The notes below the pieces were generated by a model, which was given only the letters and a program-made list of their open reading frames with translations, was not told where the DNA came from and searched no databases. Positions 15,051 to 33,363 of a stretch of DNA of 64,000 bases are shown piece after piece. Source of the stretch: Candidatus Iainarchaeum sp. (lineage in GTDB: Archaea > Iainarchaeota > Iainarchaeia > Iainarchaeales > GCA-2688035); NCBI GenBank assembly GCA_017610175.1, contig JAFCCO010000005.1, positions 284-64,283 of the forward strand, written 5' to 3'. The position numbers were made by a program, and so were the translations under genes. Numbering within the stretch: position 1 is the stretch's first letter; each line of letters begins with the position of its first letter.

Positions 15051-15156
15051 TTTAATCATATGAATTAAAACAGGGAACCTTTAAATTGCTTTTCGCGCCG
15101 CTTTATTTCCTACAGAAGTATTATAAACTTAGGACTGCAAATTATTTGTGATTAGA

Positions 15157-15606
15157 ATGCCTTTTTGGAAAAAGAGAGCAAAACCCGCCGCTGACAAAAC
15201 TGCAGCCGCTAAAAAGCCCGCACCCAAACCTGTTGAACCGGCGCCTGTGAAAAAGCGTGCAAAAGTATCTTCAGCTGAAGCGAGTGCTGCTCAACAGAAA
15301 AGAAGGGCGGAGAGTATAGAGGTTGCAAAGCTTAGTGCAAAAGTGCCTGTTTTTGCGGCAGAATGCAAGAGAATCGGTGTTTCCCCTGCACAGGCATTCC
15401 TGAAAGCCCACAATATAATTCTTACCGCAAAGGGAAAGGGTTGGGACAAGCTCAGGGCCCAAATTGCCGACAAGCTTGCGGTGGAAATGATTTCTCTTCC
15501 CGAGGAAAAAGCGCATATGGCCCGCCAAATCGAGGCGCAGATTATTTCGAATTATATTACCCCTCTAATTAAGAAAGGCCTTTTAACCAAGGCAATGCTG
15601 GGCTAA
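15157..15606 (+). CDS. Hypothetical protein with basic Lys/Ala/Pro-rich N-terminus
   Basis: MPFWKKRAKPAADK...; TTATAAA TATA-like box upstream. Confidence 0.65.
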   Translation: MPFWKKRAKPAADKTAAAKKPAPKPVEPAPVKKRAKVSSAEASAAQQKRRAESIEVAKLSAKVPVFAAECKRIGVSPAQAFLKAHNIILTAKGKGWDKLRAQIADKLAVEMISLPEEKAHMARQIEAQIISNYITPLIKKGLLTKAMLG

Positions 15607-15632
15607 ACCGCTTTTTAAAGCCCCGAACTCTG

Positions 15633-15649
15633 CGAAAAGTATTTAAAGA
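15633..15649 (+). promoter_or_regulatory. Archaeal BRE/TATA promoter of the aromatic leader and operon
   Basis: CGAAAAGTA followed by TTTAAAGA (15642-15649); predicted start site falls at about the leader ATG (leaderless mRNA). Confidence 0.65.
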
Positions 15650-15671
15650 ACCTTGCCCTATAATTCACTAT

Positions 15672-15776
15672 ATGGAATGTGCAAACGCATTTATTGGTGC
15701 TGAAACTTTTCTTTTCAAAGTTTGCGCAGCCGTGGGCAAGTACTTTGCTTATTGGTATTTTTATTTTTTTGAGTAG
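15672..15776 (+). CDS. Phe/Tyr/Trp-rich leader peptide of the aromatic amino acid operon (34 aa)
   Basis: MECANAFIGAETFLFKVCAAVGKYFAYWYFYFFE*; 9 of 10 consecutive codons aromatic (4 Tyr, 4 Phe, 1 Trp); ends 104 nt before tal. Confidence 0.88.
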   Translation: MECANAFIGAETFLFKVCAAVGKYFAYWYFYFFE

Positions 15777-15831
15777 GCACCAGGCTACTCTCTGTTTTTA
15801 GCTTGGTTGCCAGGACTAACAAACGGAGAGT
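15771..15831 (+). promoter_or_regulatory. Putative attenuator: alternative RNA hairpins downstream of the aromatic leader
   Basis: GAGTAG/CTACTC (15771-15790); GCACCAGGCTA/TAGCTTGGTTGC (15777-15810); about 20-bp stem ACTCTCTGTTT...AAACGGAGAGT (15787-15831); the stems overlap one another. Confidence 0.7.
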
Positions 15832-15880
15832 TCACACTATAAAAATTTGATAGGGAAAAAAAGTTGGAGCGTGAAAAAAA

Positions 15881-16537
15881 ATGGAAATTTGGGTTGACAG
15901 TGCGGATATTGGTGAAGTAAAAAGAGTTCATGAACTTGGAATAGTTGACGGGGCAACAACAAACCCTTCCCTTTTTGCAAAGCAGAAAAGCAAGGATTTC
16001 AAGGGGGTTGTGAAGCAGATTGCTGACATAGTTAACGGGCCGGTTTCGGCAGAGGTTGTCGCAACAGATTTTGAGGGAATGGTGAGGCAGGCTGAAATTG
16101 TCTCAAAAATCCACAAAAACGTTGTAGTGAAAATTCCATGCATTCCTGACGGGCTCAAAGCCGTAAAGTACTGCAGTGACAACGGAATCAAGACAAATTA
16201 TACCCTGACCTTTTCCGCAAACCAAATTCTTCTTGCTGCAAAAGCGGGAGCAACCTACACAAATGTATTCATTGGCAGGTTGGATGACGCAGGGCACAGC
16301 GGAATGGAGGTTGTAAGGGAAGCAATGCAGATTCTGAACAACTACAAGTTTGAAACAAAACTAATTGCGGCCTCAACAAGGCACCCTTTGCACATTAAGG
16401 AAGCGGCTTTGCTTGGATGCCATGTGGCAACAGTTCCGCCCGCATTAATTGAAAAGCTAATAAAGCACCCGCTAACCGACGCAGGGCTCAAGCAGTTCCT
16501 TGCAGACTGGGAGAAATGCGGCTGCAAAATTGAGTGA
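15881..16537 (+). CDS. tal: Transaldolase (short TalC/Fsa family)
   Basis: GATTNPSL, SAEV, VKIP and FIGRLDD motifs (Glu/Phe pattern of transaldolase rather than Fsa). Confidence 0.92.
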   Translation: MEIWVDSADIGEVKRVHELGIVDGATTNPSLFAKQKSKDFKGVVKQIADIVNGPVSAEVVATDFEGMVRQAEIVSKIHKNVVVKIPCIPDGLKAVKYCSDNGIKTNYTLTFSANQILLAAKAGATYTNVFIGRLDDAGHSGMEVVREAMQILNNYKFETKLIAASTRHPLHIKEAALLGCHVATVPPALIEKLIKHPLTDAGLKQFLADWEKCGCKIE

Positions 16538-16547
16538 GTGATTTAAA

Positions 16548-17621
16548 ATGGGGCTTGCTGAGAAAAGAAAAAAGATAGATTCAATTGACGAGAAGGTTCT
16601 TAACCTGCTTAGCCAGCGGGCTAAAGTTGCACAGGAAGTTGCAAAGGAAAAGGGCAAGAGCGGGACACAAATTTATGTGCCCGAGCGGGAAAGGTCGCTT
16701 CTCGAAAACCTTGTGAAGAAAAACAAGGGTCCGTTCAGCGGCAAGGCAATTGATTCAATTTACCGCGCAATAATTTCCGAGTGCCGTGCACTGGAAAGTT
16801 CAATGAAGGTTTGTTATCTTGGCCCTGCAACAACATTCACGCACATGGCTGCGATAAAGAACTTTGGAAACTCAACCGAATTCATTCCAAAGGACAGCAT
16901 CTCAGACGTATTTCACAATGTGGAAAAAGGGGTTGCAGATTACGGTGTTGTCCCGGTTGAAAACAGCACAGAGGGCACAATTAACCACACGCTCGATATG
17001 TTCATTGATTCGGAGCTAAACATTGTGGCAGAAATCGTTCTTGACATAAAGCACTGCCTGCTTTCAAACCACAAGCTTAAGGAGATTAAGAAGGTGTACT
17101 CAAGGCCCACGGCCCTTGCGCAGTGCCGAAACTGGCTTGCGCAGAACCTGCCAAAGGCGGAACTTCTTGAGTCAAGCAGCACCGCAAAGGCAGCGGAATC
17201 AGTTACCCTGTACCACAGCAGTGCGGCAATTTCCTCAGAGCTTGCGGCAAAGGAATTCGGGCTTGACATTCTTGCAAGAAACATTCAGGACAACCCATAC
17301 AATGCCACAAGGTTCTTTGTGGTTGGAAAAACCAAGCCAAAGAAGGCAAACAAGAACAAGACAAGCATAATGTTCTCAGTAAAGCACGAGCCCGGCTCAC
17401 TTTTCAGGGCGCTAAAGTCTTTTTCGGACGGGAAAGTAAACATGACCAAAATTGAGTCAAGGCCAACCCGCAGGAAAGGCTGGGAAGTCGTGTTCTTCAT
17501 AGATTTTGAGGGGCACTTAGAGGATGACACAGCCAAAAAAGTGCTCGCAGACATGCAGAAGAACTGCTTATTTGTAAAAATACTTGGCTCATACCCTATG
17601 GAGGTAAGTGTCAGTGAGTAA
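16548..17621 (+). CDS. pheA: Chorismate mutase / prephenate dehydratase (P-protein)
   Basis: N-terminal AroQ domain, [11 protein letters not shown] and ACT-domain KIESRP motifs. Confidence 0.95.
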
Positions 17622-18429
17622 AAGCATTGCCGAGCTTGGAGAAATTTCCAAAACGGTTCGCCGTGAAATCCTTAAAATGATTACAAAGGCGGGAAGCGGC
17701 CATCCGGGCGGCAGCCTAAGCTCAACCGATTTGGTTGTAGCGCTTTACTTCTCCAAGATGAAGCACGATTCAGGCAATCCAACAGACCCTGAGAGGGACA
17801 AGTTTGTTCTAAGCAAGGGGCATGCGTGCCCGCTTTTGTACGCGGTGCTTGCGGAGGCGGGATACTTTCCCAAAGAAGAGCTTTCATCGCTTAGAAAACT
17901 CGGTTCAATTCTGCAGGGGCACCCCGACAGGAACAAGGTTCCGGGAATTGAGGCTTCAACAGGAAGCCTTGGCCAGGGGCTAAGCATTGCAAATGGAATA
18001 GCGCTTGCCGACAGGCTTGATAAAAGAAACTCAAGAACCTACTGCCTTCTTGGCTGCGGTGAATCGCAGGAAGGGCAGGTTTGGGAGGCCGCAATGGCTG
18101 CGGCACACTACAAGCTTGATAACCTTTGCGCAATAATTGACAAAAACAACCTGCAAATAGACGGCAAAACATGCGAGGTAATGAACATCGAGCCTGTTGC
18201 TGAGAAATGGATGGCCTTTGGCTGGAATGTTATTGAAATTGACGGCCACAACTTTGGCGAAATACTCAAGGCATTTGATGAGTCCAAAAAAGTCAAGGGA
18301 AAGCCCACGATGATTGTCGCAAAAACCGTTAAGGGAAAGGGCGTTTCGTTCATGGAAAACGTCTGCGGTTTCCACGGGAAGGCATTAACCGAGGAAGAGC
18401 TTGCAAAGGCAGTGGAGGAACTCAAATGA
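17614..18429 (+). CDS. tkt: Transketolase N-terminal subunit
   Basis: [25 protein letters not shown] and EGQVWEA motifs (GCGE in place of GDGE). Confidence 0.94.
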
Positions 18430-19370
18430 CCGACGCGATTGCAACAAGGGAAGCCTACGGAAACACTCTTGCGGAACTTGGCGAAAAAAACAGGGCCATT
18501 GTTGTGCTCGACGCCGACTTGAGCAAGAGCACAAAGTCCGCAACGTTTGCGGCAAAATTCCCCGAACGATTCTTTGATGTGGGGGTGGCCGAGGCGAACA
18601 TGGTTGGAATTGCGGCAGGTTTTGCCATTGCGGGAAAAATTCCTTTCGCAAGCAGTTTTGCGGTTTTCGCAACCGGTCGCGTATTTGACCAGATTAGGGT
18701 AAGCGTTGCATACAGCAACCTAAACGTGAAAATTGTGGGTTCCCACGCCGGCCTTGCGACAGGGGAAGACGGAGCAACACACCAGGCAACAGAGGACATT
18801 GCATTAATGCGCTCTCTTCCAAACATGTCCGTGATTTCACCGGCTGACGGGGTTGAAACAAGGCTTGCGGTTGAATCAATGGCTGCAAACCCAGGTCCTG
18901 TTTACCTGCGCACCTCCCGTTTGAAAACTCCCGCAATATTTGATGAAAGTTACAATTTTAAGATTGGAAAAGGGACAATAATAGGGGACGGTTCGGATGT
19001 TTCAATTATTGCAACAGGAATAATGGTTTCAAAGGCAGTTGAGGCCGCTGAATTGTTAAAGAAAAACGGCATAAGTGCACGCCTGATTAATATGGCAAGC
19101 ATTAAGCCGCTTGATGAACAGCTTGTTCTCAAAGCCGCAAAGGAAACTGCAGGGATTGTTTCCTGCGAAGACCACAGCGTGATTGGGGGGCTTGGCTCTG
19201 CAATAGCAGAAACCATTTCCGAAAAGCATCCTGCAAAACTTCATCGCATAGGCCTTAATGATAAATTCGGTGAGTCGGGAAAACCTGACGAACTTTACAA
19301 AAAATTTTCAATGGATGCGGCTGCAATAGCCGCATCTGCAAAAAATTTGCTGAACAAAACCGGGGAGTGA
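18426..19370 (+). CDS. tkt: Transketolase C-terminal subunit
   Basis: [20 protein letters not shown] and [10 protein letters not shown] motifs. Confidence 0.94.
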
Positions 19371-19375
19371 TGACA

Positions 19376-20389
19376 ATGATTATAGTTCTAGGCAAAAAAG
19401 CAGACGACAAAGCAATAGAGGAACTAACAGAGGAAATTGAAAACAAGGGACTCAAGGTTTTTATCTCAAGGGGGGAGCAGAAGATAATTGTTGGCGCAAT
19501 GGGTGACGAAAGGCTTCTCAATATTGATCACCTGAAAGCGCTTCCATTTGTTGAAAAGGTAATGCCGATTACAGCACTCTACAAGCTGGCAAGCCGTGAA
19601 TTCCACCCAGAGGACACAATCATTAAGGTAAACGGCTGTGAAATTGGCGGGGACAACCTCACAATTATTGCAGGGCCCTGTGCAATCGAGAGCGAAAAGC
19701 AAATGCTTGAAACAGCGCACGCAGTAAAAGATGCCGGAGCATCAATTCTTCGCGGTTCGGCATTCAAGCCAAGAACCTCTCCCTACGATTTCCAGGGGCT
19801 TGCGGAAGAGGGGCTGAAAATTCTGAAAAAGGCAAAGGAAGAAACCGGTCTCCCCATTGAAACAGAGGTTATGGACACAAGGCATGTTGAGCTTGTTGCA
19901 AAATACGTTGACATTCTTCGCGTTGGCGCAAGGAACATGCAGAACTTTGACCTTCTTAAGGAAGTTGGGCGAACGAACAAGCCTGTAATTCTCAAAAACG
20001 GTGTTGCATCCACCATGAAGGAATTCCTCATGGCTGCAGAATACATTATGAGCGAGGGAAACGAGAACGTTATTCTCTGCAACAGGGGAATCAGGTGCTA
20101 TGAACCAGAGCTTCGCTTTCCGATTCTCAGCGGGCTAACCAACCTAATCAAGCAAAAGACCCACCTCCCGGTAATTGTTGACCCAAGCCACAGCACAGGC
20201 AACAAAAGCCTTGTTGTTCCGGTTTCAAAGGCGGCAATTGCAGAGGGAGCCGACGGAATAATTGTCGAGGTCCACAACTGCCCGGAGGAAGCAAAGTGCG
20301 ATGCCGCACAGCAGCTTACCCCTCCCGAATTCAGGGAAATGATGGTGGAACTGAGAAAAATCGGCGAAGCGGTTGGAAAAAAGCTGTGA
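19376..20389 (+). CDS. aroF: DAHP synthase, type I-beta with N-terminal regulatory domain
   Basis: [27 protein letters not shown] and DPSH motifs. Confidence 0.95.
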
Positions 20390-20393
20390 TTGC

Positions 20394-21008
20394 ATGAAAG
20401 TATATGTTTGCAGGCACGGAGAAACAGTGCTTAACAAGAAGAGGTTGAGGCAGGGGATCCTTGATTCGCCCCTGACTGTCCTGGGTGTTAAGCAGGTTGA
20501 GGAAATGGCCAGTGCACTTTCGGGCATTTCTCCTGCTGCAATTTATTCTTCAGATCTTGGGCGGGCGGTTGCAACCGCCGAGATAATTGCAAAGCCGCAC
20601 AATCTTAATCCAATTCTCTTCGACAAAATACGCGAAATAAGCGGAGGTGCTTTGGAGGGACTCAGCTTTGAGCAGTCAAACAGCAAATACTTCAAGGATG
20701 TTGAGGCGCGAAACAGGGACAAGTTCAATGTGCCGTTTCCGGGCGGGGAAAGTTACGCTGATGTGGAAGTTCGTGTAAAGTCTTTTATTGAAATGCTGTA
20801 TGAAAAGCATTCTGATGAAGAGGTCATTATTGTTTGCCATCAGGCTGTCGGGCGAATGCTTGCTGTACTGCTTGCAGACTTCCCTGCAGAAACAGTGCTT
20901 AAGACGCAGTTTTTGCACAATATGGTTTATGAAATAGATTCAACCAAAGAGAATAAGGTAAGTTACTTGCTTGATGGCAAGAAACATGAGGGCTTGCTTT
21001 ACAGATAG
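20394..21008 (+). CDS. Histidine phosphatase / phosphoglycerate mutase family protein
   Basis: RHGET, SSDLGRA, PGGES and VCH motifs. Confidence 0.88.
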
Positions 21009-21017
21009 GAGATTTGA

Positions 21018-22289
21018 ATGGAGTTGTTGGTAAAAAAATCGGTATTGAACGGCAACATAAGGATTCCCGCCTCAAAGTCACACACCATCCGTGCTGTCAT
21101 GATTGCATCGCTTGCGAGCGGAAAGTCAACCCTCCTGAACCCACTTGATTCAATGGATTCAACCGCAAGCGTTAATGCCTGCAGGGCAATGGGTGCAAAA
21201 ATCGAGCTGGGAAAAAACTGGGCTATTGAAGGGTTTGCCGGAAAGCCTAAAACCCCAAAGTCCGACATAGACCTTATGAACTCGGGCACCAGCACAAACA
21301 TGGTTGCAGGGATCGCCGCCCACACAACAGGTCCAACCGTTCTCACAGGGGACGAAAGCCTTAGAAGCAGGCCGTTTGCCCCAATTGTTAACGCATTAAA
21401 TGCATTGGGTGCAAGGGTTGAAAGTGTTCCGGGGAACGGAAAGCTTCCGCTTAATGTAAGCGGCTTTCTAGAGGGTGGTTTTGTTGAAATTGACGGCCTT
21501 AATTCACAGCCGGTTTCCAGCATTTTAATTAACTCTGCACTTGCCAAAAATGATATGGAGATGCGCGTAACAAATTTCCACGAGCAGTCCTATGTAAGGA
21601 TGACAATGCAGTGGCTTGACTGGATGGGCATAAAGTACTGTGAAAAGAAAATGGAAACATTCAATGTAGAGGGCGAACAGCAATTCAATTCCTTTGAACG
21701 AAGCATTCCCGCGGACTTTTCATCGGCAACATTCCCGCTTTGTGCGGCCTCAATAATTTCCGGAAGCGACGTTTTGCTTCAGGGTCTTGATATGGATGAC
21801 TCGCAGGGGGACAAGGACGTTGTTGCAATGCTCCAAAAAATGGGTGCGGAAATTGATGTGAATGAAGATGGAATTAGGGTGCGCGGCTCTGAATTGCATG
21901 GAACAGAGCTTGACTTAGACAACACTCCTGATGCATTGCCGGCTCTTGCGGTAGTTGGCTGCTTTGCAGATGGGGAAACCCGCCTTGTAAATGTTGCACA
22001 GGCAAGAATTAAGGAAACAGACCGCATTGCTGCTATGGCTACCGAGCTTAAGAAGATGGGTGCGGATGTGGAGGAGCTTGAAGACGGATTGGTTATTAGA
22101 AAAAGCAATTTGAAGGGTGCGGAAGTTGACGGAAAACACGACCATCGTCTGGTAATGGCCCTTTCCATTGCAGGAATGCTTGCGGAGGGCTCAACAACCG
22201 TAAAAACAGCCGAATCGGTTGACGTGACTTTTCCAACCTATCCGAAATTAATGTCTTCTTTGGGTGCAAAGATGGAGCTGGTGAAATGA
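21018..22289 (+). CDS. aroA: EPSP synthase
   Basis: PASKS, NSGT, SLRSRP, RIKETDR and DHRLVM motifs. Confidence 0.95.
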   Translation: MELLVKKSVLNGNIRIPASKSHTIRAVMIASLASGKSTLLNPLDSMDSTASVNACRAMGAKIELGKNWAIEGFAGKPKTPKSDIDLMNSGTSTNMVAGIAAHTTGPTVLTGDESLRSRPFAPIVNALNALGARVESVPGNGKLPLNVSGFLEGGFVEIDGLNSQPVSSILINSALAKNDMEMRVTNFHEQSYVRMTMQWLDWMGIKYCEKKMETFNVEGEQQFNSFERSIPADFSSATFPLCAASIISGSDVLLQGLDMDDSQGDKDVVAMLQKMGAEIDVNEDGIRVRGSELHGTELDLDNTPDALPALAVVGCFADGETRLVNVAQARIKETDRIAAMATELKKMGADVEELEDGLVIRKSNLKGAEVDGKHDHRLVMALSIAGMLAEGSTTVKTAESVDVTFPTYPKLMSSLGAKMELVK

Positions 22290-22807
22290 AAAACATTGTG
22301 ATAATGGGTTTTAAGGCATGCGGAAAGAGCTGGGTTGGAAGGGACCTTGCCAAAAAGCTTGAAAGGGAATTTATTGACCTGGATGATGTGATTAGGGACC
22401 TTTATAAACAGGAATTCGGGGAACAGCTTTCATGCAGGGAAATTCACCAAAAGCACGGTGCCGAAAAATTCCGTTCCCTTGAAGCAAAAGCGGTTGAGCA
22501 GGTTTCCCAAAAAAGCGATTGCGTTATTGCTTTGGGGGGCGGAACAATTGCATACTCTGCAAACGTTGACCTGCTTAAGGGTTCGGGAATAATTGTTTAC
22601 CTTAAGGATAGTGCTGAGAATTTGCTTGAGCGAATTAAGAAAAGGGGAATTCCCACCTTTCTTGACCCCACTGATTTGGAGGGCTCAATGAAGCGCGAGC
22701 TTGCAAGGCGCGAACCGCTTTACGAAAAATATGCGGACATTATTGTATCCTCCGCTGGGCTAAGTATTGACGGCATTGTTGAAAAAATTATTGGGGCATT
22801 GAAATGA
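22286..22807 (+). CDS. aroK: Shikimate kinase (bacterial AroK type)
   Basis: GFKACGKS P-loop, DLD, FR.LE, LGGG and R.PLY motifs. Confidence 0.93.
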   Translation: MKNIVIMGFKACGKSWVGRDLAKKLEREFIDLDDVIRDLYKQEFGEQLSCREIHQKHGAEKFRSLEAKAVEQVSQKSDCVIALGGGTIAYSANVDLLKGSGIIVYLKDSAENLLERIKKRGIPTFLDPTDLEGSMKRELARREPLYEKYADIIVSSAGLSIDGIVEKIIGALK

Positions 22808-23469
22808 TCGCCGTTCCAATCACCGCCGAATCCATTGATTCTGCGCTCTCAGACATTGGGCTTGCAAACGAAAAGGCCGACATTATTGAGCTTCGCCTGG
22901 ATTTTCTTGAGGACGTAAGTGAATCTGGCCTCAAAGAGCTGTTGGATGCGTGTGAAAAGCCGGCAATAGTCACTTTCAGGGACAAGAATTTTGGGGCGTC
23001 AGTTGAGCAGACTGAGCGGGTTTTCATGCTTAAGAAGGCAATTGATTTTGGGGCGCACTTTGTTGACATTGACTTTGATTCCGAAAAGGATTTTGTTGAG
23101 GATGTTGTGGAGCACAAGCAGGGTGCAAACATTATTTTGTCCCACCACAATTTTGAGGAAACGCCTTCATTGCCTGAGCTTATGAAAGTGCTTAATTCAC
23201 TGCTTGAAGTGCCAGGAATTGATGTTGTGAAGATTGTTACTTTTGCGCAGGACGAGTCCGACAATGACACAGTTCTTGCGCTCATTAAGGTTGTACAAGA
23301 TGCCGAAAGGCACATTATTGCCTTTTGCATGGGCTCAAAAGGTCGAAAAAGCCGCATTGCTTGCGTAAAACTTGGCTCACTGCTTACATTTGCGTCCCTT
23401 GGATTGGGCAAGGAAAGCGCTTCAGGGCAGTTGGCTGTTAATGAAATGAGAAAGGAGCTGGCAAAATGA
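22804..23469 (+). CDS. aroD: 3-dehydroquinate dehydratase type I
   Basis: ELRLD, SHHNF..TP, VKIV, MG..G..SR and ASGQL motifs. Confidence 0.93.
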   Translation: MIAVPITAESIDSALSDIGLANEKADIIELRLDFLEDVSESGLKELLDACEKPAIVTFRDKNFGASVEQTERVFMLKKAIDFGAHFVDIDFDSEKDFVEDVVEHKQGANIILSHHNFEETPSLPELMKVLNSLLEVPGIDVVKIVTFAQDESDNDTVLALIKVVQDAERHIIAFCMGSKGRKSRIACVKLGSLLTFASLGLGKESASGQLAVNEMRKELAK

Positions 23470-24278
23470 TTACCGCAAAAACAAGGGTTTGCGCCGTTCT
23501 TGGGCATCCTGTTGCGCACAGCATGAGCCCCGCAATTCACAATGCTGCATTTAATGAGCTTGGGTTGGATTTTGTTTACGTTGCATTCGACGTTGAGGAT
23601 GTCAGGCCCGCAATTGATGCAATGCGTGAAATGGGCATTAAAGGGTATAGTGTGACAATTCCCCACAAGCAGGCGGTTCTCCCATTAATGGACAAAGTGG
23701 ATTCTCTTGCGGAAAAGATTGGTGCGGTTAACACAGTAGTGAATTCGGGTGGCAAGCTTGAAGGATTCAACACGGATGCATTTGCCGCAGCCAGCGCATT
23801 GGAAGCAAAAACAAGTTTGGGTGGTAAGAAAGTTGCCTTGCTTGGTGCAGGCGGTGCGGCGCGCGCAATAGCCTTTGCTCTTTTTGAAAAGGGCTCTCTT
23901 GTGACAATTTTGAACCGCACTGCTTTAAAGGCCGAAGCTCTTTCAAAAGAGGTTGGTTGCGCACACGCTTTTCTGAATGAGATGGCTTCTTTGGATTTTG
24001 ACATTTTAATCAACGCAACCTCGATTGGAATGCATCCAAAAGTTGACGCTTCCCCTGTTGACAAAAGTATTTTAAAGAAGGGAATGCTTGTTTTTGATGT
24101 GGTTTACAATCCTGTTGAAACCCTGCTGTTGAAGCAGGCAAAGCAAGCGGGTTGTGGCACAGTAAGCGGGGTTGAAATGTTTGTTGGGCAGGGCGCCGAG
24201 CAATTCAGGCTCTGGACCGGCAAAAATGCCCCTGTTGAATTGATGCGCAAAGTTGTGTTAGGGAAGTTGGGCAAATGA
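23466..24278 (+). CDS. aroE: Shikimate dehydrogenase
   Basis: HSMSP, VTIPHK, GAVNT, NTD, GAGGAAR and NAT motifs. Confidence 0.96.
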
Positions 24279-25342
24279 CCGGAAACGTTTTTGGAGAATC
24301 GTTCAAAATAGTGACTTTTGGCGAGTCCCACGGCACAGCAGTCGGTGTAGTGATTGACGGCGTAAAACCGGGTATTAAAATCAGTGAAAAGGACATTCAA
24401 AAGGAACTTGACAGGCGAAGGCCTGGGCAGAGCAAAGTAAGCACTGCCCGCGAGGAAGAGGACAAGGTTGAGATTCTTAGCGGTGTGTTTGAGGGAAAGA
24501 CGCTTGGGACACCAATTTGCCTGCTTGTTTGGAACAAGGGGATGAAATCAAAGGATTATTCTGCGATAAAGGACTTGTTCAGGCCTGGTCAGGCGGACTA
24601 CACTTATCTGAAAAAGTTTGGATTTCGCGATTACAGGGGCGGAGGCCGTGCTTCCGGAAGGGAAACTATTGGAAGGGTTGCTGCCGGAGCCGTTGCAAAA
24701 AAGCTTCTTGCAAAGAACGGCATAAAGGTTATTGCTTACACCCGCGAGATAGCAGGCATTTCTGCGAAACACTTTGTTGAGGCTGAGATTGAGAAGAATC
24801 CTGTTAGATGCCCTGACAGGGCTGCCGCAAAGAAGATGGCCAGGGCGATTCTTGAGGCAAAATCGGTTGGAAACAGCGTTGGCGGGGTTGTGGAAATTGT
24901 TGTAAAGAACGTTCCTGCCGGTTTGGGCGAGCCTGTTTTTGGAAAGCTTGATGCAGAGCTTGCAAAGGCCTTGATGGGCATTGGCTCAATTAAGGGTGTT
25001 GAGATTGGGGTCGGTTTTGAGGCCGCAAAAATGAAGGGAAGCGAGTGCAATGATGAGATGTATTCAAGGGGCGGGCAGGTTAAGTTCAAGAGCAATAATG
25101 CGGGCGGAATCCTGGGGGGAATCTCCAGTGGCCAGGACATTGTTGCACGCATTGCAGTAAAGCCCACTCCCTCAATTTCACTGCTTCAAAAAACGGTTGA
25201 CGTGAAAGGGAAGAATAAAAGCATCCAAACCTTTGGAAGGCACGACCCCTGCATTTGCCCGCGCGTTGTCCCCGTTGCGGAGGCAATGGTTGCGCTTGTT
25301 CTGGCTGACGCAATTATGGCTCAGGACGCCAAAAAGAACTGA
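24275..25342 (+). CDS. aroC: Chorismate synthase
   Basis: [24 protein letters not shown] and GRHDPC motifs. Confidence 0.97.
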
Positions 25343-27469: not shown

Positions 27470-28588
27470 TCAGCGGTTTTCTTTTATTGCCTGCTTGACC
27501 GTTTCTTCGAGAACCTTGATTCCATATTTTCCGTCAACTTTCTTCATTTCGCCTATTGTTGCGGGAAGCGCAAACTCTGCCTTTCCAAGTCTTGCCTTTT
27601 TATCCAAGCGAATTAGCCTTAGAATCTCTTCGGTTTCCATTTTCTTTGGGACAAGCGTGCTTAATCCCATTCCCTTGAAAATTTTCTGCTGCCTTTCAAC
27701 GTCTTCTTTTGGTAAAAAGTTCATTTTGTGCGCAATCTTTGCCTCGGTAATGAGCCCTATTGCAACGCATTCGCCGTGCTTTAGCTTAAAGTCTGACATT
27801 TTTTCAATTGCGTGCCCGATTGTGTGGCCGTAGTTAAGAATTTTTCTGATTCCATTCTCCCGCTCGTCCTCTTCAACAACTTTTGTTTTGATTTTGCAGT
27901 TCCATTCAAGAAGCTCAATCATTGTTTCAGTGTAGGTTTCGCCTTTTCGTTCCATTATTGTGTTCTGGTTCTTTTCAAAGAATTCAAGAAATGCCCTGTC
28001 TGCGATAATTCCGTGCTTTACGAGCTCAACCATTCCCGCCCTGTATTCCATTTCAGGAAGTGTGTCAAGTGTTGCAATGTCTATGTACACTTTGCTTGGC
28101 TGGTGAAACGTCCCAATCAGGTTTTTTCCTGCCGGCACATCAATTGCGGTCTTTCCCCCGACACTGCTGTCTGCCTGTGCGACAATGCTTGTTGCAACCT
28201 GGACAATTGGAATTCCGCGCATGTAGGTTGCGGCAATAAATCCCCCAAGGTCTCCGCACACTCCGCCCCCAATTGCAATGAGCGCCGAGTCCCTTCCGTA
28301 TCCCTGTTCAAAAAGCATGTCCTCTATCTCCGCTTTTGTCTGCCTTGACTTGCTTTTTTCGCCTGCATTAAACACAAGTAGTGAAACATCAAGCCCCTGT
28401 TTTTGCATTTCCCCAAGAAGTTTTTTTCCGTGGTTTTTCTCCACGTTTGAATCCGAAAGAATTACATACCTGTTTGCAAGATTCATTTTTTTCAAATCGG
28501 TTGCAATTTGCAAAAAGAGGTCTCTTCCCACCACAATGTCGTATGACTTGTTTTCCATTTTTTCGAGGTTTACCCTTATAGTTCTCAT
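27470..28588 (-). CDS. aroB: 3-dehydroquinate synthase (bacterial type)
   Basis: GEKSK, GGGVCGD, DSSVGGKT, LNYGHTIGHAIE and HGE motifs. Confidence 0.96.
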   Translation of the reverse strand: MRTIRVNLEKMENKSYDIVVGRDLFLQIATDLKKMNLANRYVILSDSNVEKNHGKKLLGEMQKQGLDVSLLVFNAGEKSKSRQTKAEIEDMLFEQGYGRDSALIAIGGGVCGDLGGFIAATYMRGIPIVQVATSIVAQADSSVGGKTAIDVPAGKNLIGTFHQPSKVYIDIATLDTLPEMEYRAGMVELVKHGIIADRAFLEFFEKNQNTIMERKGETYTETMIELLEWNCKIKTKVVEEDERENGIRKILNYGHTIGHAIEKMSDFKLKHGECVAIGLITEAKIAHKMNFLPKEDVERQQKIFKGMGLSTLVPKKMETEEILRLIRLDKKARLGKAEFALPATIGEMKKVDGKYGIKVLEETVKQAIKENR

Positions 28589-28670
28589 TGCATTAATCAA
28601 AACACGAAATAATTAAAAGCAACTGCTTCCGAAAGAATAAAATAGGGCTTTGTCCCTTCTTTTTAGTGAA

Positions 28671-30562: not shown

Positions 30563-31369
30563 ATGGGGCATTCCATAGTTGCGCTGACATTTGTGCTGGC
30601 GATTCTGATTGAAATGGCTTTGCCTTTGCTTTTGGGCCTTTGGGCAAAGAAGAAATTTGGCATTTCCTGGAAAGTGTTTTTCCTGGGTGCGTTCTTTTTT
30701 TCAATCACGCAGCTTTTCCGCATCCCCGTGCTGTGGCTTATTCAGCCCGGAATTCAGGCTTTTATTACCTCGTTTTCGCTTGGAACAATGCTGTATGCTG
30801 CTGGTTATGCCCTGCTGCTTGGATTGATGGTTGGCTTGTTTGAGGAGCCGGTCCGTTACCTTGTTTTTACAAGGGTTTTCCAGTGCAAAAAAGTCAAGTG
30901 CTCCCGCGAGAATGCAATAATGTTTGGATTGGGTTGGGGTGGATTGCAGAGCATGCTGATTGCAGTAACCCTTATTTTTACGCTTTTTTCATACATCAGT
31001 GCAGTGCCTCTCACCAATCATGACATGTTTGAAATAAGGCGTGATTACGGCAACAACATGTCTGATGCAGAGGTTGATGAAATAAAGGAAATGAAGGAAC
31101 GCCTTTACAACACAGAGTCTGCTGACATAATTTTAAATGTTTTTGCCACAATTATGAATTTTGTGATGCAGGTTGTGTTCTGCGTACTGGTTTGCTTGTT
31201 TGTTTCAACAGGCAGAAAGGCTTACTTTGCGGCTGCATTTATGCTGCACTGGTTCTTTGAGTTCTGTTCCATTTTTATAATGACTGCGTTTGGCTTTTGT
31301 GTTTGTTGTGGGCTGATGCTGGTGATTGCTGCCGCGAGCGTTGTGTTTGTCTGGAAAAAGATTAAGTAG
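30563..31369 (+). CDS. YhfC-family glutamic-type intramembrane metalloprotease
   Basis: GLFEEPVR, FGLGWGG, C-terminal His, multi-TM. Confidence 0.75.
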   Translation: MGHSIVALTFVLAILIEMALPLLLGLWAKKKFGISWKVFFLGAFFFSITQLFRIPVLWLIQPGIQAFITSFSLGTMLYAAGYALLLGLMVGLFEEPVRYLVFTRVFQCKKVKCSRENAIMFGLGWGGLQSMLIAVTLIFTLFSYISAVPLTNHDMFEIRRDYGNNMSDAEVDEIKEMKERLYNTESADIILNVFATIMNFVMQVVFCVLVCLFVSTGRKAYFAAAFMLHWFFEFCSIFIMTAFGFCVCCGLMLVIAAASVVFVWKKIK

Positions 31370-32255
31370 TCAGTTCCAGCCCTGTTTTTTGGTTTAATCC
31401 AAACAGTAGGTTCAGGTTCTCCACTGCCTGTGATGCCGCGCCCTTCATCAAATTGTCCAATGCCGAAACAATTGTAACGTTCTTTCCGTGAACCTCAAAC
31501 CCTCCAACCAAACAGTTGGGTGTTTTTAACACCTGCTTTGTGGCCGGAGCGCTTTCACAAACACAGGTAAAGCTTCCCTTATAAAATTCCTCAAATTTTT
31601 CTTTAACTTCGGCCTGGCTCATTTCGCTTTTCAGCTTGATGTGTGCTGTGCACATTAGCCCGCGAAAAGCATTGACCACATGCGGCGTAAAGCAAAGTTC
31701 TGCATTCAGCACGTGCTGCATTTCATTCAAATGGTAGTGCTTAGCTATGTTGTATGCAATAATATTTTCCTCAAAATCGTATTTTGGGTTCTTTCCACCC
31801 CCGGAGTACCCGCTTATTCCGTCAAACACAGCATAATCAATTTCTTCCTTTAAGGGATAGCTTGCAAGAATGCATGCTGTGGCATAGCATCCTGGGTTTG
31901 CTACAAGCTTTGCTTCTGCAATCTCATCTTTGAACGCTTCAGGCAGGCCGTATGTGTGGGTCAGGCGATGGTCCGCGCTCAAATCAATGACTTTGCATTT
32001 TAGTTTTTTTGCAATCGGCTTTGCTTTTCCGTGCGGGACCGCCAGAAAAACAACATCCATTTGATTCATTTCGGCCGTGTCCGGCTTGCTGAATTCGAGA
32101 CCGCATTCAATCCCCTGAAATTTGTCTGAAACCTTTTTTCCGGCAAGCGAACCGCTTGTTGCCATTCCAAGCTCTACATTTTTGTGCTTTGCCAGAATAT
32201 TTAGCAGGTTTTCCCCAACATAGCCGGAAGCCCCTACGATTCCTGCTTTAATCAT
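31362..32255 (-). CDS. argC: N-acetyl-gamma-glutamyl-phosphate reductase
   Basis: GASGYVG, DLSADHR, ANPGCY and DNLMKGAASQA motifs. Confidence 0.95.
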   Translation of the reverse strand: MIKAGIVGASGYVGENLLNILAKHKNVELGMATSGSLAGKKVSDKFQGIECGLEFSKPDTAEMNQMDVVFLAVPHGKAKPIAKKLKCKVIDLSADHRLTHTYGLPEAFKDEIAEAKLVANPGCYATACILASYPLKEEIDYAVFDGISGYSGGGKNPKYDFEENIIAYNIAKHYHLNEMQHVLNAELCFTPHVVNAFRGLMCTAHIKLKSEMSQAEVKEKFEEFYKGSFTCVCESAPATKQVLKTPNCLVGGFEVHGKNVTIVSALDNLMKGAASQAVENLNLLFGLNQKTGLELTT

Positions 32256-33363
32256 TTTCAAGGATCCCTTTAATTATTTTTGTGCCCTGCAGAATTTCTT
32301 TCCCCCCAATTGAAAGCGGAGGCAGGAAGCGCAGCAAATTTCCATGCATTGGATTCACCAAAGCGCCTTTTTTGGCGCATTCTTTTGCAACCGAATTTGC
32401 GTCCCCCTCTATTTTGGCGGCAAGCATTAGCCCCTTGCCCCTTACTTCCTTAATTTTTCCAATCTTTTCCAGCTCTGCCACGAAAAGTTCGCCTTTTTTT
32501 CCAACTCCCGGCATTAGTTCCTCTATTATTTCAATTGTTTTGAGTGCAACAGCGCAGCACACGCTGTTTCCGCCAAAGGTTGAACCGTGGTCTCCTTTCT
32601 CAAAGTCAATTCCGTTTCCTGAGATTACCGCCCCCATTGGCAGGCCGTTTGCAATCCCCTTTGCAATCGCAACTATGTTGGGCTTTACGCTTTCGTGCTG
32701 GAAGCAGAAGAATTTTCCTGTTCGCCCGTTCCCGCTTTGAATTTCATCCAGTACCAAAAGGGCTTCATTTTCCTTGCATATTTTTTCAACCTGCTTCAAA
32801 TAGCCCTTTGGCGGCACAATTATTCCCGCCTCTCCCTGGATTGGCTCAAGCAAAACCGCGGCCGTTTCCTTTCCAATCTTTTCAGCCAGCGCGTTCGCAT
32901 TTCCAAATTCCACGTGTTCAAATCCTGGGACAAGCGGCTTGAATTTTTCCTTGTACTTTGGATTCCATGTTGCGGAAAGCGCGCCCAATGTTCTTCCGTG
33001 GAATCCGTTTTTCATCGCAATTATTTTTTGCTTGCCTGTGTGTTTCTTCGCAAGCTTTATTGCCCCCTCCACTGCCTCTGTTCCTGAGTTGCAGAAAAAT
33101 ACTTTCTCCAGCCCTGAAAGTGATGCAAGTTTTTCAGCAAGCTTTACCTCGTGCTCTGAGTGAAAGTAGTTGCTTGGGTTGATTATCTTGCTTGCCTGGC
33201 TTGCAACAGTTTTTACAATTTCTGCGTTTCCGTGGCCGACCGAACAGGTTGCTATTCCTCCAATCAGGTCAAGGTATTTTTTTCCGCTTGAATCAAACAC
33301 ATTGCAGCCCTTTCCGTATTCAAGGGTGATTTCCTTTGCATAGCAGTTCATCAGGTTGTTCAT
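32248..33363 (-). CDS. argD: Acetylornithine aminotransferase
   Basis: NSGTEA, FHGRT, EPIQGE, DEIQSG, AKGIANG and HGSTFGGN motifs. Confidence 0.93.
   Translation of the reverse strand: MNNLMNCYAKEITLEYGKGCNVFDSSGKKYLDLIGGIATCSVGHGNAEIVKTVASQASKIINPSNYFHSEHEVKLAEKLASLSGLEKVFFCNSGTEAVEGAIKLAKKHTGKQKIIAMKNGFHGRTLGALSATWNPKYKEKFKPLVPGFEHVEFGNANALAEKIGKETAAVLLEPIQGEAGIIVPPKGYLKQVEKICKENEALLVLDEIQSGNGRTGKFFCFQHESVKPNIVAIAKGIANGLPMGAVISGNGIDFEKGDHGSTFGGNSVCCAVALKTIEIIEELMPGVGKKGELFVAELEKIGKIKEVRGKGLMLAAKIEGDANSVAKECAKKGALVNPMHGNLLRFLPPLSIGGKEILQGTKIIKGILEND

Follow-up and report, generated by a model that had tools for sequence, protein, structure and literature searches.

A candidate leader-peptide attenuator sensing Phe, Tyr and Trp ahead of the aromatic amino-acid operon of an iainarchaeal genome

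The 64,000-nucleotide stretch of Candidatus Iainarchaeum sp. DNA analysed here (the window) carries, ahead of an operon of aromatic amino-acid (aro) genes, a short open reading frame (ORF) whose product ends in a nearly uninterrupted run of phenylalanine, tyrosine and tryptophan (Table 1). Nine of the last 11 residues of the 34-residue peptide are aromatic, Phe occurs also at positions 7, 13 and 15, and a single Glu codon stands between the aromatic tract and the stop codon; the codons in question are six TTT, one TTC, three TAT, one TAC and one TGG. A spacer of 104 nt separates the ORF from the transaldolase gene with which the operon begins. A first-pass annotation, made from the letters of the DNA without database searches, had read the peptide end as K-YFAYWYFYFF-E* with three earlier Phe residues and had placed an 11-gene aromatic-pathway operon downstream, and both statements are borne out, the one by the translation of 15672-15776 and the other by the gene annotation of 15881-25342. 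A short ORF lying directly upstream of a biosynthetic operon and rich in codons for its end products is the arrangement that characterizes the attenuator class. Rfam returned no match at gathering score anywhere in the window.

Table 1. Position of the leader ORF, of the elements flanking it and of the genes around it, in window coordinates (hairpins and their free energies are predicted).
Feature	Position	Strand	Remarks
Upstream gene	15148-15606	+	152 residues, no Pfam family; its own T5 tract (15612-15616) closes the preceding transcription unit
Archaeal promoter	15633-15647	+	purine-rich stretch resembling a B recognition element (BRE), then a TATA-like octamer at 15640-15647
Leader ORF	15672-15776	+	ATG, 34 codons and TAG; no Shine-Dalgarno motif upstream; presumed leaderless
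Aromatic tract	15741-15770	+	codons 24-33, 9/10 for Phe, Tyr or Trp; T5 and T7 runs inside
Hairpin A:B	15777-15810	+	-13.2 kcal/mol; begins at the first base after the stop codon; T5 tract in its loop
T5 tract of the spacer	15795-15799	+	candidate archaeal termination or pause signal
Hairpin B:C	15787-15831	+	-22.4 kcal/mol; shares the 3' arm of A:B, holds the T5 tract in paired form and cannot coexist with A:B
Transaldolase start region	15856-15885	+	A7 at 15856-15862, GGAG at 15866-15869, A8 at 15874-15881, ATG at 15881
Controlled operon (putative)	15881-25342	+	11 co-directional genes, most junctions overlapping or shorter than 12 nt; in order: transaldolase, chorismate mutase-prephenate dehydratase-ACT (CM-PDT-ACT), transketolase N, transketolase C, 3-deoxy-D-arabino-heptulosonate 7-phosphate (DAHP) synthase, His_Phos_1, 5-enolpyruvylshikimate 3-phosphate (EPSP) synthase, shikimate kinase, dehydroquinase I, shikimate dehydrogenase, chorismate synthase
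Dehydroquinate synthase gene	27470-28600	opposite to the operon	

The source assembly (G000; 1.24 Mb in 34 contigs, 90% complete, 44.8% G+C) encodes two TATA-binding proteins (TBP), a family that among the control genomes matches only the four archaeal ones, and an FttA/aCPSF1 gene whose 630-residue product combines the FttA KH domain with metallo-beta-lactamase, Beta-Casp and RMMBL domains. Because of these genes we take the host to be an archaeon; a 16S gene was not found in the assembly. With a TBP of the host, an archaeal termination factor and a TATA-type promoter, the locus displays the attributes of an archaeal transcription unit.

Related leaders and their promoters

Within the source genome the ORF stands alone in composition. 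Among 469 intergenic small ORFs (sORFs) of G000 that begin with ATG and lie upstream of a same-strand gene it ranks first in aromatic density, its densest ten-residue stretch holding nine aromatic residues and that of the runner-up, a poly-Phe ORF, seven; leaders for other amino acids were not seen among these 469. For the comparison with relatives we drew on the source order, to which 196 of the 215 genomes of the phylum-level group belong, and counted an sORF as a leader under a strict rule that asks for an ATG start, a length of 8-70 residues and six or more F/Y/W among the last 12. The transaldolase sample comprised all 46 loci of the order with an expectation value (E) of 2.4e-47 or better. 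At 10 of these the gene is followed by CM-PDT and DAHP synthase, which we call an aro-type locus, whereas at the other 36 it is followed by transketolase only or stands by itself (three of the 36 contigs end before the downstream region becomes visible). A rule-passing sORF lies at most 400 nt upstream in 8/10 aro-type loci and in 0/36 of the others (Fisher p = 1.7e-7, a value that treats the genomes as independent although they are related).

A second sample was built on DAHP synthase. Fifty-eight of the 196 genomes had a match at E of 1e-30 or better and 40 further regions were taken, nine genomes with only weak, short matches being left out of the 49 examined; in 31 of the 49 an sORF that passes the rule precedes the first aro gene, be it CM-PDT, DAHP synthase or transaldolase, on the same strand as the operon, and these 31 carriers belong to 13 families. 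In 1439 kb of strand-sequence, rule-passing sORFs occur at a background density of 0.054 per kb, real leaders included. The first-pass annotation had proposed searching relatives for F/Y/W-run ORFs before aro genes, and both samples contain them. In one of the loci (L090) the sORF is separated by unidentified ORFs from the first gene recognised as an aro gene. One further genome (G082, locus L075) passes a relaxed rule only: upstream of its CM-PDT gene, behind a TATA box, stand two consecutive small ORFs with aromatic or Cys/Phe-rich tails, the first of which ends in a Tyr-rich run and yet fails the strict rule.

The element is also found away from the head of the operon. The aro cluster of genome G037 contains, between shikimate kinase and DAHP synthase and just before the latter, an aromatic-run sORF that has a TATA box of its own (L097:4105-4197, minus strand), and no comparable sORF was found before the transaldolase of that genome (L009); this placement suggests that the leader is a movable cassette. 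Outside the genome collection, a metagenome scan with a CM-PDT alignment yielded 80 loci, 71 of them (44-57% identity) with at least 250 nt of upstream sequence. A single one of the 71 has a leader, identical to one already among the 31; the other loci, which carry no taxonomic assignment, say little about a bacterial origin. A metagenome pattern scan for the tail motif of the window's family gave no matches, and a genome-contig search with the transaldolase alone returned bacterial records only.

What the 31 leaders have in common is a plan rather than a sequence. Their length ranges from 16 to 44 residues (median 30), and between families the peptides are not alignable, only the ATG, the length and the aromatic tail being kept; the window's own family also shows conservation in the middle of the peptide. 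The last aromatic codon is the final or next-to-last sense codon, except in L093 and L094, where it lies two codons back. Together the last 12 residues hold 135 F, 71 Y and 24 W, with W present in 24/31 leaders and Y in 30/31, and the F+Y+W share of the long ORFs in the same loci is 7.6%. The mixing of all three aromatic amino acids to which the first-pass annotation drew attention is in other words the ordinary composition of these tracts. U-ending codons are favoured in them by comparison with those long ORFs (TTT 0.68 vs 0.55, TAT 0.80 vs 0.53), and because of this preference a T5+ run lies inside the tract of 26/31 leaders.

These regularities also speak to a simpler possibility raised at the outset, namely that the T-rich stretch is conserved without frame, ATG or TGG/TAC codons and merely terminates the upstream gene. 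The relatives keep the ATG, the frame and TGG/TAY codons, and the ORF is not the terminator of that gene because the gene ends at 15606 with its own T5 and the TATA box lies between. A programmed frameshift on the U-rich tract, helped by the downstream hairpin, was likewise considered and rejected: in the window the -1 frame runs into a stop codon immediately, and no alternative frame extends consistently.

The promoter geometry argues for a leaderless transcript. In the window the TATA-like octamer starts at -32, and the 24 nt between it and the ATG hold no GGAG/GGTG-type Shine-Dalgarno motif. The first-pass annotation had rightly seen a TATA box and no ribosome-binding site, but the position it gave for the box, 15642-15649, gives way to that in Table 1. 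In the 29 leaders having an octamer with at least 6 of 8 matches, the median distance from the end of the TATA box to the ATG is 23 nt, and in 19 of them it lies within 20-28 nt. A similar arrangement runs through G000, where TATA-like hexamers upstream of long ORFs peak at -32..-29 (0.23 per gene per 4-nt bin vs about 0.05 elsewhere) and Shine-Dalgarno-like 4-mers occur at 0.70 before internal genes as opposed to 0.45 before first genes. A sizeable share of the mRNAs of this genome is thus probably leaderless, and the leaderless start already proposed for the window's leader appears well founded on geometric grounds and ordinary for the organism. A GGTG-like motif does precede the ATG in L070, L102 and the L020/L021 pair, which may carry a short 5' untranslated region. 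Another recurring motif, TTAG, is found 4-9 nt after the TATA box in 12/30 leader promoters vs 13/169 G000 promoters of similar geometry, and could serve as the operator of a protein regulator that works in addition to the leader; 15648-15671 of the window is without it.

RNA folds and tracts beside the stop codon

A hairpin of -8 kcal/mol or stronger is predicted to start no more than 6 nt from the stop codon in 25/31 leaders, compared with 28% of 930 shuffled windows, 19% of the sites after 599 ordinary G000 stop codons and 25% of 600 random G000 windows. In the window this is hairpin A:B, which is homologous and conserved in five leaders of its family, with 11 pairs, several of them showing compatible one-sided changes; other families have a different hairpin at the same place. 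The window is moreover predicted to form the mutually exclusive hairpin B:C, in such an order that A:B would appear first in the growing RNA and B:C would become the stable fold after 15811-15831 has been made. The members of the window's family look similar in this respect, and the other families have no general alternative fold.

The aromatic tract itself takes part in the predicted structure. In the full leader of the window its U-rich portion, 15760-15770, pairs with 15875-15885, that is, with the A-run and ATG of the transaldolase gene. When a ribosome is modelled either on the later codons of the tract or at the stop codon, the accessibility of this start rises from 0.18 when free to about 0.5, and that of the spacer T5 falls from 0.77 to 0.25-0.53 (0.25 with the ribosome at the stop codon). 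Over all leaders the mean probability that the tract pairs with a downstream purine-rich partner is 0.43 vs 0.15 for the N-terminal 30 nt of the ORF, and it is the higher of the two in 27/31; the best partner overlaps the start region in roughly half of the leaders, at about chance level.

The spacers are enriched in homopolymeric tracts relative to shuffled sequence: T5+ tracts occur in 17/31 vs 4.4 expected, T7+ in 7 vs 0.45 and A5+ in 21/31 vs 7.8. One clade has the hairpin, then an A-tract, then T6-T9, and in others the T-tract lies inside the stop-adjoining hairpin. The only pattern match for a bacterial-type terminator at this site of the window, a small hairpin with T5 at 15771-15790, was discarded, as it is not kept in the nearest relative.

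Attenuation and its alternatives

We read the ORF as a ribosome-mediated leader-peptide attenuator by which an archaeal aromatic amino-acid operon senses Phe, Tyr and Trp, with a probability that we put at about three in four, since no other class of element accounts at once for the retention of the reading frame, the occurrence at aro operons exclusively, the choice of codons and the constant placement next to the stop codon. Transcription would start at the ATG or a few bases from it, so that a ribosome could bind the emerging RNA at its 5' end and translate the ORF of about 30 codons, the last 10-12 of which nearly all specify Phe, Tyr or Trp and are followed by the stop at a distance of 0-1 codon. 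As long as charged Phe-, Tyr- and Trp-tRNA are plentiful, the ribosome would finish and leave, and the U-rich tract and the segment adjoining the stop codon would fold, which in the window would mean the hairpin at 15777-15810, then the stronger one at 15787-15831, with the tract paired to the A-rich start region of the transaldolase gene. In this off state the untranslated spacer with its T-tract would be open to premature termination (at oligo-T and/or by FttA), the first start would be masked and expression of the operon would be low. Should any one of the three tRNAs be poorly charged, the ribosome would stall in the tract, directly before the stop codon, and its footprint would keep the tract and the base of the hairpin single-stranded, whereby the off-state folds would be blocked and the operon transcribed and translated.

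The translation of the ORF, the stalling, the direction of the switch and the step that it controls, termination or initiation at the first gene, are what we infer from this arrangement. A design in which the stalled ribosome holds the tract and the hairpin base single-stranded is favoured because the two abut the stop codon from either side; premature termination is pointed to by the enrichment of T-tracts together with the presence of FttA, and masking of the first start codon is also pointed to by the predicted fold of the window. A more specific variant, which we regard as speculative and rather doubtful, is that sensor and terminator signal are here the same kind of sequence, the Phe/Tyr codon tract and the T-tracts of the spacer being U-tracts of the kind on which oligo-T termination and FttA/aCPSF1 rely. 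A ribosome stalled on the codon tract would hide it or would re-route the A-tract that otherwise pairs with it, such that starvation would block factor-dependent termination without a terminator hairpin of the bacterial type.

Several observations weigh against attenuation or against particular steps of it. No rule-passing sORF was found in 18 of the 49 genomes, among them L072 and L084, which are congeneric with carriers, although several of the 18 have contigs that end at the gene, too early to tell. Covariation in hairpin A:B is thin, only 1/11 pairs being changed on both sides in five sequences. No T5+ tract is present in 14/31 spacers, and a hairpin with U-run of the bacterial terminator type is not conserved, the hairpins not being regularly followed by T-runs. 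In the 17 leaders with a T-tract, the modelled ribosome changes the accessibility of that tract without a consistent direction. Modelled stalling has a weak unmasking effect on the start of the first gene (with a wider start window, accessibility goes up in 9 and down in 1 of 30 leaders, mean 0.43 to 0.47; with a narrow one the effect is seen in 7/31, one of which, L102, is an artefact), so that general unmasking of the first start was given up as a common mechanism, and the accessibility is the same with the ribosome at the stop codon as when stalled. Finally, prephenate dehydrogenase (PF02153) has no match over the cut-off in the 90%-complete G000; the Tyr branch may be missing there or run by another enzyme.

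Other explanations account for part of these data. The conserved element might be a protein-bound or structured 5' region, whether a DNA operator, a regulator-bound RNA or both, with translation of the ORF incidental or nil. Known archaeal amino-acid control works via DNA-binding regulators, and the TTAG motif of leader promoters and the conserved hairpins after the ORF are what such an element might look like. It leaves unexplained, however, why the ATG, the frame, the position of the stop and the F/Y/W codons are kept across 13 families despite nucleotide divergence, and the promoter of the window itself lacks the motif; we consider it unlikely, and a protein operator can in any case co-exist with attenuation, as it does in the Escherichia coli trp operon. 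The sORF might also encode a small hydrophobic protein acting in trans, for instance a membrane peptide, a subunit of an aro enzyme or a regulator, its aromatic tail being a feature of the protein. The conservation of the mid-peptide within the window's family would agree with this, and bacterial leader peptides with functions in trans have been described (peTrpL, PMC7298713). What is kept between families, on the other hand, is the composition and position of the tail and not its sequence, the tail always abuts the stop codon and the hairpin, the preference for U-ending synonymous codons denotes a signal at the level of the nucleic acid, and the peptide has no match to any Pfam family, all of which make a protein acting in trans quite improbable. 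That the ORF arose by chance in a T-rich terminator or spacer is the least credible account. T-rich sequence read in frame does yield Phe and Tyr codons, and terminator-like sites turn up in a pattern scan about as often as chance predicts (4 vs 2.3 expected), but the difference between aro-type and other transaldolase loci, the frequency of leaders among the DAHP-synthase genomes relative to the background density, the TGG codons in most tails and the promoter lying between the T5 of the upstream gene and the ORF contradict it.

Leader-peptide attenuation is the textbook demonstration of communication between ribosomes and RNA polymerase in bacteria, and the element described here resembles the E. 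coli pheL-pheA and trpL systems in being a short ORF before a biosynthetic operon, rich in codons for the pathway products, and, in the window, in the presence of two mutually exclusive predicted hairpins. It differs from them in its archaeal host and TATA promoter, its apparently leaderless mRNA, the want of a conserved hairpin-plus-U-run terminator and a tract that reaches the stop codon and mixes three amino acids; nor does any Rfam leader model match at gathering score. In bacterial attenuators the position of the ribosome is thought to choose between RNA folds (PMC11802643, PMC3082878). The Corynebacterium glutamicum aroR leader, with its Phe-Tyr-Phe, lies upstream of the aroF (DAHP synthase) operon and is described as acting by ribosome stalling in response to Phe and not to Tyr (PMC11802643, citing Neshat et al. 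2014 for the stalling). It is likewise a mixed aromatic leader peptide before a common-pathway operon, but it is bacterial and has three regulatory residues where the leaders of the window's type have 9-10, and a sequence relationship is not expected.

The leaderless polycysteine sORFs of mycobacteria (the 'Cys ribulon') have polar effects on their operon, and their 3' tract, when unoccupied, is reported to pair with the next start region, which a stalled ribosome prevents (10.1101/834739). The archaeal element may be alike in its leaderless sORF and its sensing tract at the 3' end, and the predicted fold of the window matches. Those sORFs, however, are bacterial and sense Cys, the modelled unmasking of archaeal starts is inconsistent over the 30 leaders, and the T-tracts of the archaeal spacers suggest that termination is involved as well. 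Actinobacterial ilvB leaders have codon runs overlapping a terminator hairpin that a stalled ribosome could occlude, by a mode reported as unclear (PMC1262725). Their regulatory run thus abuts or overlaps a downstream hairpin as it does here, but the ilvB hairpins are followed by poly-U and the archaeal ones lack a regular U-run. E. coli tnaC with Rho is the example of factor-dependent attenuation, and by analogy with it a ribosome near the end of the leader ORF could mask RNA needed by the termination factor. In archaea, polarity on untranslated RNA is attributed to FttA (PMC12548453), and aCPSF1 is described as acting with U-tracts (PMC8716108).

The novelty of this leader is less than, and different from, what the first-pass annotation claimed when it stressed the reading of three amino acids and the leaderless start. 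Mixed aromatic leaders are already known in bacteria, and so are leaderless leader peptides, in Actinobacteria and Deinococcus (10.1101/834739). What is likely new is the archaeal host, a point underplayed in that annotation, and with it a TATA-driven, apparently leaderless form of leader-peptide attenuation without a terminator hairpin. Full-text searches, which did not extend to subscription journals and supplementary files, found no archaeal leader-peptide attenuator in print. [quoted passage not shown]

With no fewer than 31 natural candidates from one archaeal order, which have a clear metabolic logic and a compact, portable cassette of promoter, about 30 codons and a spacer of about 100 nt, several questions come within reach: whether archaeal transcription-translation coupling is put to regulatory use, how termination at oligo-T or by FttA could become conditional, and whether a leaderless start aids the loading of the ribosome behind the polymerase. 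If the attenuator reading is true, archaea with small genomes can control a biosynthetic pathway with no regulator protein dedicated to it; and if the U-tract does serve as sensor and terminator signal at once, this would be the first natural case in Archaea of transcription-translation coupling used for regulation.

Other features of the operon and genome

The trp operon of G000 (C33:47352-53913; L067:739 onward) has no Trp-codon leader in front. Directly before it lies a tRNA-Trp(CCA) gene (C33:47195-47268; L067:582-655), with a T-rich stretch between the two. A weak PF02153 hit at 31362-32261 of the window (minus strand) is an ArgC-like semialdehyde dehydrogenase adjoining arginine-pathway genes. 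In family f25 the transaldolase query matches in two segments, residues 1-137 and residues 134-210, that lie within one and the same open frame of about 280 residues, which suggests that the transaldolase of this family carries an insertion. Within the operon of the window, the DAHP synthase carries a ferredoxin-like N-domain, and the embedded His_Phos_1 gene (20373-21008, plus strand), a phosphoglycerate-mutase-like member of the histidine-phosphatase superfamily, keeps the same operon position in relatives at 27-50% identity.

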